NCBI RefSeq assembly: GCF_003018235.1
Contig: NZ_CP027437.1
From: Escherichia coli
GTDB taxonomy: Bacteria; Pseudomonadota; Gammaproteobacteria; Enterobacterales; Enterobacteriaceae
Direction: 5' to 3' (one strand)
Length of the DNA stretch: 64,000 bases
The translations under genes and the position numbers were made by a program. Positions within the stretch are counted from its first letter, which is position 1, and each line of letters begins with the position of its first letter. Positions 4,270-10,175 of the stretch are shown piece by piece. The notes beneath the pieces were generated by a model. That model was not told the origin of the DNA. It searched no databases and worked only from the letters and a program-made list of their open reading frames with translations.

Positions 4270-5022
4270 ATGAACCTTGAAGCTTTACCAAAATATTACT
4301 CCCCAAAATCTCCAAAATTGAGTGATGACGCACCGGCGACAGGCTCGGGTGGTTTAACAATAACAGATGTGATGGCTGCGCAGGGGATGGTGCAGTCGAA
4401 AGCTCCGCTTGGTTTTGCCTTATTCCTGGCAAAAGTTGGTGTTGAGGATCCTCAGTTTGCGATTGAAGGTCTGCTCAATTACGCGATGGCAATGGATAAT
4501 CCGACATTGAACAAATTGAGTGAAGAAATCCGGTTACAGATCATCCCTTACCTTGTGAATTTTGCCTTTGCTGATTATTCCAGGTCTGCGGCAAGTAAGG
4601 CTCGCTGTGAGTATTGTGCTGGTACTGGATTTCATAATGTATTGCGCGAAGTGGTGAAACACTCCAGAAGTGGGGAATCTGTTATCAAGGAAGAGTGGGT
4701 GAAGGAACTATGTCAGCATTGCCATGGTAAGGGAGAAGTCAGCACAGCGTGCAGAGGGTGTAAGGGGAAAGGTATTGTCCTGGATGAAAAAAGAACCCGG
4801 CTTCATAGCACGCCTGTTTATAAGGTTTGTGGGCGTTGCAATGGAAACCGGTTTAGTCGTTTACCAACGACACTGGCGCGGTGTCATGTCCAGAAGCTGG
4901 TACCAGACCTGACGGATTATCAGTGGTACAAAGGATATGCAGATGTCATTGATAAACTGGTTACAAAGTGCTGGCAGGAAGAAGCATATGCTGAGGTGCA
5001 ATTAAGAAAAGTGACGAGATAA
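4270..5022 (+). CDS. quuQ: Late-gene antiterminator Q
   Basis: 250-aa ORF with Cys-rich zinc-finger region (CEYCAGTG...CQHCHGKGE...CRGCKGKG...CGRCNGN); sits upstream of the lysis genes. Confidence 0.85.
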   Translation: MNLEALPKYYSPKSPKLSDDAPATGSGGLTITDVMAAQGMVQSKAPLGFALFLAKVGVEDPQFAIEGLLNYAMAMDNPTLNKLSEEIRLQIIPYLVNFAFADYSRSAASKARCEYCAGTGFHNVLREVVKHSRSGESVIKEEWVKELCQHCHGKGEVSTACRGCKGKGIVLDEKRTRLHSTPVYKVCGRCNGNRFSRLPTTLARCHVQKLVPDLTDYQWYKGYADVIDKLVTKCWQEEAYAEVQLRKVTR

Positions 5023-5192
5023 ATGATTTTCACCGAACGATGGCGACATAACGATTGTATTTTCTAAGGAAACGTGCAAAGAGTTTTCCAATGATGAGCC
5101 TTATATGCATACCTGTGGAAAATATCAATAAGCCGCGCAGAGTGGTTTTTTTGTGGACATAAACTTTGTGCAGAACGGTAACCATTATGGTT

Positions 5193-5229
5193 GCCGTGAA
5201 TGCAGTTTTTTTACATTGCTGGCTTTTTT
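5193..5229 (+). terminator. tR'-like intrinsic terminator about 190 nt downstream of Q
   Basis: Imperfect hairpin gccgtgaatg...cattgctggc followed by tttttt; matches the lambda PR'/tR' layout. Confidence 0.4.
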
Positions 5230-6099
5230 AGATTTGTGTTAGTTATTGATATTAACAAGAAGGGGAAAAGACATGCTAAAACGGCAGGATATGAAGGAAA
5301 CGGTTATGCGTGAATGTTCCAGTGTGATTAACCATATCATCTGGAGAAGCCATCCTGATGCAGGGAAGAGGTAACAGTAACGCGCATCAATCAGGCTGCA
5401 AATAAATGGCTTACGCCGGAAATCTGGCTATCGATGTATTACCGGTTTGTTACCCATGAAGAAAATTAAGGTGATAACGAAACTGATTTTATAGGTGTCT
5501 TGTCAGAGTGTTGCGATGAAACTTGTGTTGGCAGTGCAGGGAAAACAGTAGGATGAAAATTATAAATTGCTTTAAATGAGCTTGATTTTCCTCATGTTAT
5601 GAGATATTTGTCTTATATTGCTGGTTAATTATGAAAATTTTTGTAAATCTACAGCAATAAAATCCATATTAATTAAAGCACTAGATGCGTTTCTGATTTG
5701 TGCATGAAACATACATATCATAATGATTAATTGCATCTATAATTACAGATACAGCATTGTGCTATTAAAAAACTGGAGTCCCCATGAATACATTATATGT
5801 AAGTGATTCAAATGAAAAATCTCATGACAGGAATAAAAACAATGAGGATAGTAAGGGTAAGGATAATAAAAAAGACAACCGGAAAGAGTAAATAATCTTT
5901 CCTGCATGAAAATACTAGGGTGGAATATGTCAGAACATCCAGATTTTGATGACCGTAAGCCTGATGATGAGCCCGTTGAGCGTCCTGATGAGGGGCAACC
6001 ATTGAACCCTTTTTCACCGGATGATAAAAGAGATCCTATTATTTAGATATAGCAGAATATAGCCGTTTAAAGTAGGTTGTGTTTTGTTGCTATCCTTAA

Positions 6100-6126
6100 A
6101 CCACCTCCACAGGAGGTGGTTTTTTA
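6100..6126 (+). terminator. Strong Rho-independent terminator
   Basis: Perfect 9-bp stem accacctcc / ggaggtggt with 3-nt loop, then ttttt. Confidence 0.8.
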
Positions 6127-6182
6127 CTAATGGAACATTAATTGGCAGATGTGATTGTGTACGACTTATGGGAGGCTTAAGA

Positions 6183-6368
6183 TTATTTTCTGCCAATAAT
6201 AAAACCAAGCGTTAACCCTATGCTTAGAGCAACCACCACGCTAGTCAGTGGATAATTTCTAAATTTATCTTTAACGTTTTCTTTGCCTCCCTGCAAAGCA
6301 TCGTCAGCACATGATGCATATTTTTTGACAGTATTAACTATTTCGTTTTCAGATTGATTTGAAGTCAT
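6183..6368 (-). CDS. Small tail-anchored membrane protein, DUF883 (YqjD/ElaB/YgaM)-like; 61 aa from the first ATG (ORF open to 6467 with a TTG)
   Basis: C-terminal NYPLTSVVVALSIGLTLGFIIGRK resembles the DUF883 membrane anchor; weak SD agga. Confidence 0.35.
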   Translation of the reverse strand: MTSNQSENEIVNTVKKYASCADDALQGGKENVKDKFRNYPLTSVVVALSIGLTLGFIIGRK

Positions 6369-6823
6369 GTTTGAAGTCCTGATGTTAAGTGGTTTTTTAA
6401 TTATAGCAGATATGCTTTCAATGATAGGGCGGAGAGTTGTTATTGAGGTGATACTATGACCACTCAATCAATATTACATAAAATGACGTTTACTCCTGTT
6501 TGGCACAGTAGCAGAATTTTGCTTCTGCTACTGAAGTCGCTTTAGCACTAGAATATGCAGATGGATAAAGCAGTTCAGCGTATGTACTGCGTCATGCATA
6601 TCGGTCTTGCAGATATGACGAGAAGGGGAGACAAGGTGTGTGTAATGTAGAAGTCTTTAAAGTGCTGTCTGGGATAACTCTATGCTGAAGTGCAATTGAT
6701 AAAAGTAACACGATAAAGGTTTTTCAATGAAGATGGTAACGTGATGCTTGCATTTTTCAAAAAATATGGATAAAATTTTTTCAAAGATGGGCTTTGTATA
6801 CCCGACGTTAAGAAAAAGTAGAA

Positions 6824-6852
6824 AACCCGCTGATGAGCGGGTTTTGTGCTTT
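6824..6852. terminator. Bidirectional intrinsic terminator (3' end of the cspF transcript on the - strand)
   Basis: Hairpin cccgct-gatg-agcggg flanked by T-rich tracts on both strands. Confidence 0.55.
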
Positions 6853-7137
6853 AAATGGGGCAATGGTAATGTTGAATCTCATCCCGGGACTCATGTCTGT
6901 TAACTTATTATTTAGCTGGTGACTTGGTTATTTGCCTGATGTTTAAAATGTTTTCTTCCAGTACAATGTCCCTAAACACAATGAGTCTGCTTATTATATT
7001 ATTAGCAGAGCTATTACGGCCAAAGTACAGCATAAGCTTTTAAAGCCAATCAACCAGTCATCAAGACAGACGGGGTTATTCATAAAAACTCTCCATGTGT
7101 GATCCGATGGGGCCTGAAATTAAAGCTTTAATATAGC

Positions 7138-7350
7138 TCATGAAAGGTAAACATTGGCAGCTGAAGGGCCACGCAGACCATTTATCCGGCAAAATTCCAC
7201 GCGTAATCCGGTGGTAATTTCTTCTGCATCGCGGAGATTGAGCGCTGAAACATGAAGCTGGACATCGATACGACCATCGGATGGGGTGATAAGACCCTTG
7301 CCGCTTTTGCCGTCAAAGGTTTTGACAATTCCTGTCATTTTACGGGACAA
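7138..7350 (-). CDS. cspF: Cold-shock-like protein CspF
   Basis: 70-aa translation [70 protein letters not shown]. Confidence 0.9.
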
Positions 7351-7650
7351 AAAAATTCCTTAATACTGATAACTTGGCGCACTATACACACGTTCCTGAA
7401 GAAAGCTATAGTTTTTTGATGGGGTTGAAGATGGCTGGATGTCTAAAATAAACATTGCTTCATATGTTCAACTATGCGTTAATGATTGCGTCGGTTTGAA
7501 GAACAGACGATATACGAAGTAGTTTACTAAAGCAGTTCTCATTTCAGGTGTTATTCACTTATTCCTTCTTTGAGTCTCTCCAATTAAGTACGAAGTCGTT
7601 TCTGTTATGCAAACCATTTATGCCGAAAGGCTCAAGTTAAGGAATGTAGA

Positions 7651-7866
7651 ATGTCAAATAAAATGACTGGTTTAGTAAAATGGTTTAACGCTGATAAAGG
7701 TTTCGGCTTTATTTCTCCTGTTGATGGTAGTAAAGATGTGTTTGTGCATTTTTCTGCGATTCAGAATGATAATTATCGAACCTTATTTGAAGGTCAAAAG
7801 GTTACCTTCTCTATAGAGAGTGGTGCTAAAGGTCCTGCAGCAGTAAATGTCATCATTACTGATTAA
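7651..7866 (+). CDS. cspB: Cold-shock-like protein CspB
   Basis: 71-aa translation [26 protein letters not shown]... with the CspA-family RNP motifs. Confidence 0.9.
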
Positions 7867-8147
7867 AATTCATCGCTCGTCTGTATACGATAACGAAGAA
7901 GGCTGATGCCTGAGTAGAGATACGGACAGAGTAGTGAATATTGGATCTCTTTAATAAAAAGTAAGGAGATCCAATACATGAAACAATGGCCAGCATATTT
8001 GGCAAAATCTTAATCAGGAAAAGTATGCTAACCATTGTGGTGAAGTGCAGGTTTGCTGCATGAATAGTTTCACAGCAGAAGCTAACTGCTGGCATCGCAA
8101 AACAAAGTGCGTAAGTGGATGACTCCCACAAAAAGCACCACAATCTC

Positions 8148-8229: not shown

Positions 8230-8400
8230 TCAGGCTACAGCTTTAAGATTTGTCTGGAATACTTTGTTGCAATGAGGGCAGATCAAAAGGGCACCTTTTT
8301 GTACTCTTGAAAAACTGTGTTCTGACTCTTGGGTGCAGTTTGGGCAGGAACATTTAACGAGATAATTACGGCGTGATTTTGAGTCTTTACGTTCTGACAT
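8230..8400 (-). CDS. ynfU: Small zinc-ribbon protein (56 aa), YnfU-like
   Basis: MSERKDSKSRRNYLVKCSCPNCTQ...CPHCNKVF with CxCPxC...CPxC motif; assignment to ynfU is from memory of the K-12 small-protein set. Confidence 0.5.
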   Translation of the reverse strand: MSERKDSKSRRNYLVKCSCPNCTQESEHSFSRVQKGALLICPHCNKVFQTNLKAVA

Positions 8401-8619
8401 AGGCTTTTCCTGTATAAATGGCCGTATACAGTACACTAAATATGAAAACATTTCTCGTATTATTATTTTATATATGACTTTCTTTCAAAATAATTACCCA
8501 CATTTTTAATGTGTATGTTTTTTTAGCGCCGTTGAGAACAACGTGTGCTGTCAAAACTACCCCGTAGACTCCGATCTTTTCAAACATATTGCACCATCCG
8601 TGTACATCGGGGTGAGGAT

Positions 8620-8835
8620 ATGAAATCAATGGATAAGTTAACAACAGGTGTTGCCTATGGCACATCGGCGGGTAATGCTGGTTTCTGGGCATTGCAGTTA
8701 CTCGATAAAGTAACTCCGTCACAGTGGGCTGCAATCGGTGTGCTGGGTAGCCTGGTTTTTGGCCTGCTGACGTATCTGACAAATCTTTATTTCAAGATTA
8801 AAGAAGACAGGCGTAAGGCTGCGAGAGGAGAGTAA
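8620..8835 (+). CDS. essQ: Class II holin (phage 21 S-type pinholin) with dual-start motif MKSM
   Basis: 71 aa with two transmembrane segments; Met1 and Met4 give antiholin/holin starts; followed by a SAR endolysin. Confidence 0.85.

Positions 8836-9147: not shown

Positions 9148-9151
<4 letters not shown>
8840..9151 (+). CDS. ydfR: DUF1327 protein YdfR
   Basis: 103-aa ORF between holin and endolysin, as in K-12 Qin. Confidence 0.8.

Positions 9152-10175
<1,024 letters not shown>

Follow-up and report, generated by a model that had tools for sequence, protein, structure and literature searches.

The 61-codon gene and its start

The window analysed here, a 64,000-nucleotide stretch of Escherichia coli DNA (contig NZ_CP027437.1, assembly GCF_003018235.1), represents a Qin-like lambdoid prophage. 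On its minus strand, opposite to the antiterminator and lysis genes that flank it, lies a small gene for a 61-residue protein, WP_000203370.1, which ends in a single hydrophobic helix. This protein and its relation to the DUF883 family are the subject of the present analysis. The E. coli members of that family, YqjD, ElaB and YgaM, are C-tail-anchored, sigma-S-dependent, ribosome-associated inner-membrane proteins made up of the Pfam domains PF05957 and PF19029. The gene and the elements closest to it are as follows.

6183..6368, minus strand: coding sequence of the 61-residue tail-anchored protein (WP_000203370.1; phrog_11629), from annotation, family alignment and the ratio of non-synonymous to synonymous substitution rates (dN/dS)
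6377..6380, minus strand: Shine-Dalgarno-like AGGA, 8 nt before ATG 6368, from the sequence
6397..6408, minus strand: predicted promoter -10 region TG-C-TATAAT-TAA, ending 31 nt before the ATG
6098..6122, no strand assigned: 11-bp hairpin between convergent genes (-18 kcal/mol, z -3.4 and -4.5)
6444..6519, plus strand: relic of a P22AR-C (antirepressor-like) gene, comprising 12 upstream nt and the first 64 nt, at 83% identity

The initial annotation had reported an open reading frame (ORF) on the minus strand at 6183..6467. This ORF is present, with the translation quoted there and ending ...KENVKDKFRNYPLTSVVVALSIGLTLGFIIGRK before the stop codon. Its start had been left uncertain between a TTG at 6467, giving 94 residues, and the ATG at 6368, giving 61. 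The true start is ATG 6368, because homologues begin at the aligned methionine (MFNHS..., MFNKS..., MFTKS...) and because AGGA lies 8 nt upstream of this codon, at a position where homologues carry GGAGG, GGAG or AGGAG. Moreover, the conserved -10 element (6400-6405) falls within the putative TTG extension, and the extension runs antisense to the relic of another gene, since the 76-nt P22AR-C relic at 6444-6519 overlaps it on the other strand. The NCBI Prokaryotic Genome Annotation Pipeline (PGAP) and phage records also annotate the shorter form; PGAP names WP_000203370.1 a hypothetical protein of 61 residues, and the same call is made in the record of phage PhiR63_1. The uncertainty is thus settled against TTG 6467, and the 94-residue form is rejected on homologue N-termini, Shine-Dalgarno position, internal promoter, antisense relic and annotations alike. 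An intact version of the P22AR C-terminal-domain (antirepressor-like) gene is found in 124 E. coli genomes.

Relatives of the protein fall into four lineages, listed further below. The 61-codon gene is a real coding sequence under purifying selection, not a chance ORF, since homologues at 36-57% identity exist and dN/dS is 0.04-0.25 across all informative lineage pairs. The best pair differs by 26 synonymous and 8 non-synonymous changes, a dN/dS of 0.04. The surrounding region is AT-rich, with a GC content of 36%.

The C-terminal anchor and its relation to DUF883

The tail-anchored architecture proposed initially, with one C-terminal transmembrane helix followed by basic residues, is borne out by hydropathy analysis. 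Four parts can be distinguished: a helix spanning approximately residues 4-38, a hinge at Pro40, a transmembrane helix at residues 41-59, and the terminal R60-K61. The Kyte-Doolittle mean is 2.19 over the 19 residues 41-59, after which only the R-K pair remains. An AlphaFold2 model built with the family alignment has a helix at 4-38, a break at P40 and a second helix at 40-60, and the hydropathy value together with this second helix gives the C-tail-anchor topology characteristic of DUF883. YqjD has been described with the same helix-kink-helix architecture. Small residues are spaced at i+4 along the transmembrane helix to form a zipper, S43/A47/G51/G55/G59. The proline is invariant in all ten family members compared, and the terminal RK is replaced by RR in other lineages.

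Several of these features have direct counterparts in YqjD, ElaB and YgaM. These proteins likewise have a single C-terminal transmembrane helix with a helix-breaking proline immediately before it (P40 here, P80 in YqjD), an all-helical soluble part and a basic end (terminal RK compared with RR). In YqjD the small residues recur at every fourth position over five turns and in the same register, G83/G87/G91/G95/S99. There are differences, however. The phage protein has 61 residues, compared with 101-109 in the host proteins; the host subfamilies keep a tryptophan after the proline, which the phage family does not have; and the phage-family genes are carried by prophages.

PF19029 (DUF883_C) is the only Pfam match of the 61-residue protein, and it is the top Pfam match in each of the five family members scanned, with a best E-value of 0.0023. 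For comparison at the profile level, YqjD, ElaB and YgaM from strain MG1655 served as the DUF883 reference, for which 14 non-redundant enterobacterial relatives were collected. Alignment of the phage family with the enterobacterial DUF883 profile by hhalign gave a probability of 94.9% and an E-value of 4.8e-8, matching residues 34-61 with 74-101 over 28 columns. When these last 28 columns were shuffled, all 200 shuffles fell short of the observed score of 42.9 (mean 16.3, maximum 25.4). Shuffling of the 19 transmembrane-core columns alone, with composition kept, gave the same outcome, 0 of 200 (mean 21.8, maximum 40.9). It is therefore residue order and register, and not merely composition or hydrophobicity, that drives the match between the anchors.

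A decoy search points the same way. The window and 46 loci supplied 5,461 stop-to-stop ORFs, against which a DUF883 hidden Markov model (HMM) was run unfiltered. Its top 40 matches were family members only, with all four lineages represented; the best E-value was 5e-5, and that of the window protein 0.025. The DUF883 similarity put forward by the initial annotation thus holds at the profile level for the C-terminal 28 residues, and it stops short of a Pfam gathering-level match and of recognition of the N-terminal domain. Recent derivation from host elaB, ygaM or yqjD was considered and rejected, the similarity at the DNA level being no greater than that of shuffled sequences.

The soluble part

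The soluble part comprises 39 residues, compared with about 79 in YqjD, and the whole protein is some 40 residues shorter. Aligned alone with DUF883 by hhalign, it gave a probability of 2% and a score of 14.2, which was equalled by 5 of 300 shuffles. With a soluble-only DUF883 HMM the four lineages scored 4.6-8.5 bits, and the real score was reached by between 1 and 11 of 1,000 shuffles. In these comparisons the 61- and 64-residue lineages align N-terminus to N-terminus, with DDALQGG or DDALRSG opposite EEVLRSSG at the same residue numbers, whereas the 82-residue lineage aligns elsewhere, at positions 27-71 of the soluble HMM. The family may have arisen from a DUF883 ancestor by either an internal deletion or an N-terminal truncation, since hhalign and HMMER place the lineages in different registers.

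What has been reported for YqjD is relevant here. Its inactivation of ribosomes requires the N-terminus, dimerisation mediated by the transmembrane helix, and the hinge proline; N-terminal deletions progressively abolish this activity, which does not depend critically on which transmembrane helix is present (Njenga et al.).

Predicted expression signals

The predicted promoter of the 61-codon gene was found by reading of the sequence and by its conservation between lineages. It comprises an extended -10 TG at 6408-6407, a C at -13 (6406), the hexamer at 6405-6400 and a TAA at 6399-6397. It agrees with 10 of the 11 positions of KCTAYRCTTAA, the extended -10 consensus for sigma-S (Weber et al. 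2005, quoted in PMC5650638). On both strands of the 64 kb window together there is a single copy of the decamer CTATRRTTAA, where 0.34 are expected. All four lineages have a C-TAT-R-N-T-TAA element 29-32 nt upstream of the ATG. In the other lineages, which have otherwise diverged upstream, it reads aCTATAGTTAA (31 nt), aCTATACTTAA (32 nt) and gCTATGATTAA (29 nt). These variants, too, fit KCTAYRCTTAA, and the -10 element would accordingly be a promoter of sigma-S type.

Similar elements precede host genes: tCTATAGTTAg lies 33 nt before the ATG of elaB, tCTACACTgaa 34 nt before that of ygaM, and tCTATGATTAA upstream of yqjC. For elaB and ygaM the distance between element and ATG is nearly equal to that of the phage genes. 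At the MG1655 loci examined (L009, L010 and L011), the upstream sequences of elaB (TCTATAGTTAG), ygaM (TCTACACTGAA) and yqjC (TCTATGATTAA) are close matches to the sigma-S -10 consensus.

Downstream, the hairpin at 6098-6122 lies 60 nt past the stop codon of the 61-codon gene and 51 nt past that of the convergent ORFb, described below. Its T-run (6120-6125) is on the plus-strand side, the minus-strand side having only UUU. The initial annotation had suggested a cargo gene expressed during lysogeny, a reading that fits the conserved predicted promoter and the hairpin.

Convergent reading frames

Two short ORFs on the plus strand face the 61-codon gene across the hairpin.

5737..5743, plus strand: -10-like C-TATAAT (CTATAATTA) preceding ORFa; CTATAATAA stands at the corresponding position of the Enterobacter locus
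5784..5891, plus strand: ORFa, a possible 35-residue ORF rich in K, N and D, upstream of ORFb; coding status uncertain
5927..6046, plus strand: ORFb, 39 residues, acidic and proline-rich (MSEHPDFDD...EGQP...PDDKRD), conserved with the Enterobacter lineage

Both are unannotated in the window, and searches of Pfam and PHROGs returned no match for either. The window from about 5740 to 6410 is collinear with the locus of the Enterobacter lineage (blastn and MAFFT). In the plus-strand ORF region, 383 nt are about 61% identical, and a hairpin lies between the 61-codon gene and the convergent ORFs in both the E. coli and the Enterobacter lineages. The counterpart of ORFb is a called 45-residue gene beside the Enterobacter-lineage homologue (locus L007), and it is invariant in 11 Enterobacter-type loci. 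The two differ by an in-frame indel of six codons, with a dN/dS of about 0.34, and both keep the motifs PDFDD, EGQP and PDDKRD. For ORFa, the Shine-Dalgarno sequence and start (GGAGT.CCCATGAA) are kept in the Enterobacter lineage. The convergent neighbour in the Leclercia-type lineage is a different one, a small zinc-ribbon ORF (MRFICPACKSNRFFF...CSVCGT; approximately 6196-6800 of locus L003, minus strand) in place of ORFa and ORFb; this ORF looks degenerate in locus L038.

Distribution and annotation of the family

Relatives of the protein are few. When 1.84 billion representative proteins were searched exhaustively with HMMER, only a handful of true relatives was recovered, to which a profile search contributed a few others, and IMG/VR gave 23 family loci. 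The four lineages are as follows.

Lineage 1: E. coli / E. marmotae, 61 residues
Lineage 2: Leclercia type, 64 residues
Lineage 3: second 64-residue type, miscalled as 91 residues by gene callers through a wrong extension
Lineage 4: Enterobacter type, 82 residues

The large repetitive proteins P0003, P0006 and P0008 at the top of the representative search proved to be artefacts of summed repeats, having no DUF883 domains. In PHROGs v4 the 61-residue protein covers the entire 61-position profile of phrog_11629 (E 4.8e-47), which is matched by 10 of 10 family members. PHROG lists this family under unknown function and does not connect it with DUF883; that connection, like the predicted promoter and the cassette, was added by the present analysis.

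The name DUF883 has nevertheless already been given to some members. UniProt automatically calls the exact protein (A0A193M168) 'DUF883 domain-containing', and some relatives are labelled 'ElaB/YqjD/DUF883 family' by JGI and NCBI; RefSeq has 'hypothetical'. NCBI labels some Enterobacter entries of the 82-residue lineage 'CsbD family', a family that is, like this lineage, small, helical and by name associated with stress. This label finds no support here: a Pfam scan of the 82-residue lineage gave no CsbD match at E-values up to 10, and its top match was DUF883_C. No meaningful match for the 61-residue protein was returned by PADLOC, a Protein Data Bank (PDB) sequence search or NCBIfam, full-length DUF883 proteins are essentially absent from phage records, and a literature search yielded no paper linking DUF883 to prophages or mentioning this protein.

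Of the 5,426 complete E. coli genomes 39 encode the exact protein, as do 2 of the 50,697 phage records, and a public assembly index lists it in 4,816 blocks. The family occupies four different slots, the int or icd side counted as one. The gene lies between Q and S in E. coli without exception, at the prophage end, past the tail-fibre genes, in Leclercia, and between Rz and Nu1, adjoining gnsAB, in Enterobacter. Other copies are found 3.7 kb past int, adjoining a Usp gene, and in an icd-side prophage remnant that contains gnsAB and ynfU. Wherever late genes are visible nearby, the family gene is on the strand opposite to them.

Prophage setting and the insertion

Bases 5000-8000 of the window are matched at 99.1-99.5% identity by phages HannyBb and PhiR63_1, the latter from ECOR13. 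The flanking prophage genes, and the features of the insertion that carries the cassette, are listed here.

4270-5022, plus strand: antiterminator Q gene (PF03589), by Pfam; 92% identical to K-12 YdfT
7138-7350, minus strand: cspF-like cargo gene between Q and holin, by Pfam
7651-7866, plus strand: cspB-like cargo gene between Q and holin, by Pfam
8230-8451, minus strand: ynfU cargo gene between Q and holin, by Pfam
8620-8835, plus strand: P21-type holin, by Pfam
9148-9681, plus strand: lysozyme, by Pfam
5038..6731, no strand assigned: cassette-carrying insertion, about 1.69 kb long, by comparison with K-12 Qin; present in 39 of 5,426 complete E. coli genomes and in 2 phage records
5040..5150, plus strand: pR'-like unit A (TTGTAT...AAAGAG, with a poor -10) with a terminator at 5130-5148, upstream of the cassette
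6745..6850, plus strand: pR'-like unit B of K-12 type (TTGCAT-17-TAAAAT) with a hairpin at 6822-6845, downstream of the cassette

The insertion is placed between Q and the lysis genes. K-12 Qin lacks these 1.69 kb, as do about 1,850 other E. coli genomes in which the flanks are shared. It is bordered by a 73-nt imperfect direct repeat of the 3' end of Q, at 4965-5037 and 6659-6731, with 77% identity between the copies. The copy at 6659-6731 is the remnant of another Q allele. Window sequence from 6659 onward aligns with K-12 Qin at 94.6% identity, beginning 58 nt before the end of ydfT and continuing downstream of that gene. Within the insertion, 5400-5900 has a GC content of 27-33% and short ORFs only, with no annotated gene, and a 51-residue ORF on the minus strand at 5030-5185 is annotated in PhiR63_1 only and has no Pfam match.

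Units A and B are homologous and lie in tandem, 1.7 kb apart, on either side of the cassette. The gene had been described as opposite to late transcription, and as regards strand this stands, the 61-codon gene being on the minus strand and Q, holin and lysozyme on the plus strand. Late transcripts may or may not cross the gene, since two homologous pR'-like units flank it.

An Rfam scan gave no match under or beside the 61-codon gene. Its sole solid match, the cspA thermoregulator (RF01766, full-length, 158.9 bits) at 7490-7913 on the plus strand, spans the 5' leader and the coding region of the cspB-like gene.

Interpretation

We conclude that the 61-residue protein is probably a shortened and divergent DUF883 relative, C-tail-anchored in the inner membrane and carried as a self-contained cargo module by lambdoid prophages of the Enterobacteriaceae. 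The most fitting description of the gene is that of a shortened DUF883 variant, borne by prophages, within a small convergent moron cassette that has predicted promoters of sigma-S type. Lambdoid morons are autonomous promoter-gene-terminator units in late regions, such as HK97 gp15 and lambda bor and lom. The marks of such a unit are found here as a conserved -10 element and a hairpin, both predicted signals, as absence from K-12 Qin, as restriction to 39 of 5,426 genomes, and as a GC content of 36%. The likeness extends to the small size of this AT-rich unit, to its orientation against the flanking phage genes with promoter-like and terminator-like signals of its own, to its presence in some relatives only and to the variation of its slot between phages. 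It departs from the classic examples in being a convergent pair, the 61-codon gene against ORFa-ORFb, that shares one hairpin, and in having a product that resembles a host family of stationary-phase, ribosome-associated proteins rather than an outer-membrane or exclusion protein.

A possible course of events can be outlined. In the lysogen, the gene would rely on its own promoter and not on the lytic programme of the phage; transcription would probably be by the sigma-S (and sigma-70) holoenzyme on entry into stationary phase, as for host elaB, ygaM and yqjCDEK. The protein would then insert post-translationally via its tail, leaving the 39-residue helix in the cytoplasm, and may self-associate through the zipper face. 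Its most likely role, stated with low certainty, is in the YqjD/ElaB pathway of the lysogen, as a membrane factor for stationary phase or stress; there it might act as a minimal ribosome tether or as a partner of the host paralogues via the shared zipper. Ribosome association is plausible but doubtful.

A number of observations weigh against a DUF883 identity and role. The significant similarity is limited to the transmembrane helix, a segment that could have converged on a glycine zipper, and the tryptophan that follows the proline in host proteins is absent, the family having L, T, A or R at that position. The score against PF19029 misses the Pfam gathering cutoff (12.3 bits, E 0.14, cutoff 27), and PF05957, the N-terminal domain of DUF883, gives no match at E-values up to 10 in the five members scanned. 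Alignments of the soluble part by hhalign and HMMER are weak, with registers that are inconsistent between lineages, and the AlphaFold2 model, a two-helix rod without a hairpin, is of moderate confidence, with a predicted local distance difference test (pLDDT) score of 66. The yqjE/yqjK synteny of the host is not found, the neighbours of family genes being phage genes, csp, gnsAB, ynfU or small ORFs. A consensus promoter scan missed the predicted promoter, which has no -35 match. Furthermore, the best-conserved part says little about ribosome binding, because YqjD needs its N-terminus and not a particular transmembrane helix.

Could the protein, then, be a small prophage membrane protein that is functionally unrelated to DUF883, such as the product of a moron for superinfection exclusion or membrane modification, with an anchor that has merely converged? 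The similarity that withstands the shuffling tests covers only 28 residues, mostly transmembrane, and falls below the Pfam and NCBIfam thresholds; its gene behaves like a typical moron and occupies the kind of slot in which genes for exclusion or host fitness are found, and PHROG assigns its family no known function. Convergence sits less easily with the 200 transmembrane-core shuffles, none of which attained the real score, with soluble parts that also beat their shuffles, and with a promoter type that parallels that of the host DUF883 genes; nor was there a PADLOC match. We regard this explanation as unlikely, though it is the one that deserves most attention after a DUF883 relationship. The position of a small single-transmembrane protein between Q and the holin might also suggest a toxin or lysis accessory, of type I toxin-like or holin-like kind, near the lysis cassette. 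The gene is, however, on the strand opposite to the lysis genes and far from them in other lineages, its product has a long hydrophilic N-terminal helix instead of being a short hydrophobic peptide, and Rfam detects no antisense RNA family, so that such a function is very improbable indeed.

At the other extreme, the protein could be a full equivalent of YqjD, a minimal membrane-bound ribosome-hibernation factor added to the three paralogues of the host. It has the same hinge, zipper and basic end, a predicted promoter of sigma-S type as in the host genes, and weak collinear similarities at the N-terminus in the DDALQGG/DDALRSG and EEVLRSSG segments. Full equivalence nevertheless appears quite improbable, given a soluble part of only 39 residues against about 79, in which PF05957 goes undetected and the register is ambiguous, and given the progressive loss of ribosome inactivation when the YqjD N-terminus is deleted. 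A more speculative variant, which we also consider improbable, and slightly more so, is that the protein acts as a natural, N-terminally shortened mimic of YqjD, ElaB or YgaM that pairs with the host paralogues via the zipper. Mixed dimers could then be defective or altered in ribosome inactivation, because YqjD can block the ribosome tunnel only if it dimerises through its transmembrane helix and its N-termini are intact. If this were so, the prophage could tune ribosome hibernation in its lysogen, for example to keep translation capacity for induction, and the ORFa and ORFb peptides could be partners or regulators.

YqjD, ElaB and YgaM have been proposed as an abundant class of membrane-bound ribosome-hibernation factors, in a study that does not mention phages (bioRxiv 10.1101/2024.08.16.608256). 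Were the 61-residue protein merely a generic small membrane protein, it would be an ordinary uncharacterised moron. As a shortened DUF883 relative, which we consider the probable explanation, it would represent a temperate-phage subfamily that has kept the hinge, the zipper anchor and a predicted promoter of stationary-phase type while losing much of the soluble domain. Such a subfamily would offer a natural truncation with which to ask which parts of YqjD, ElaB and YgaM matter, and a candidate route by which prophages may influence the dormancy physiology of their hosts.

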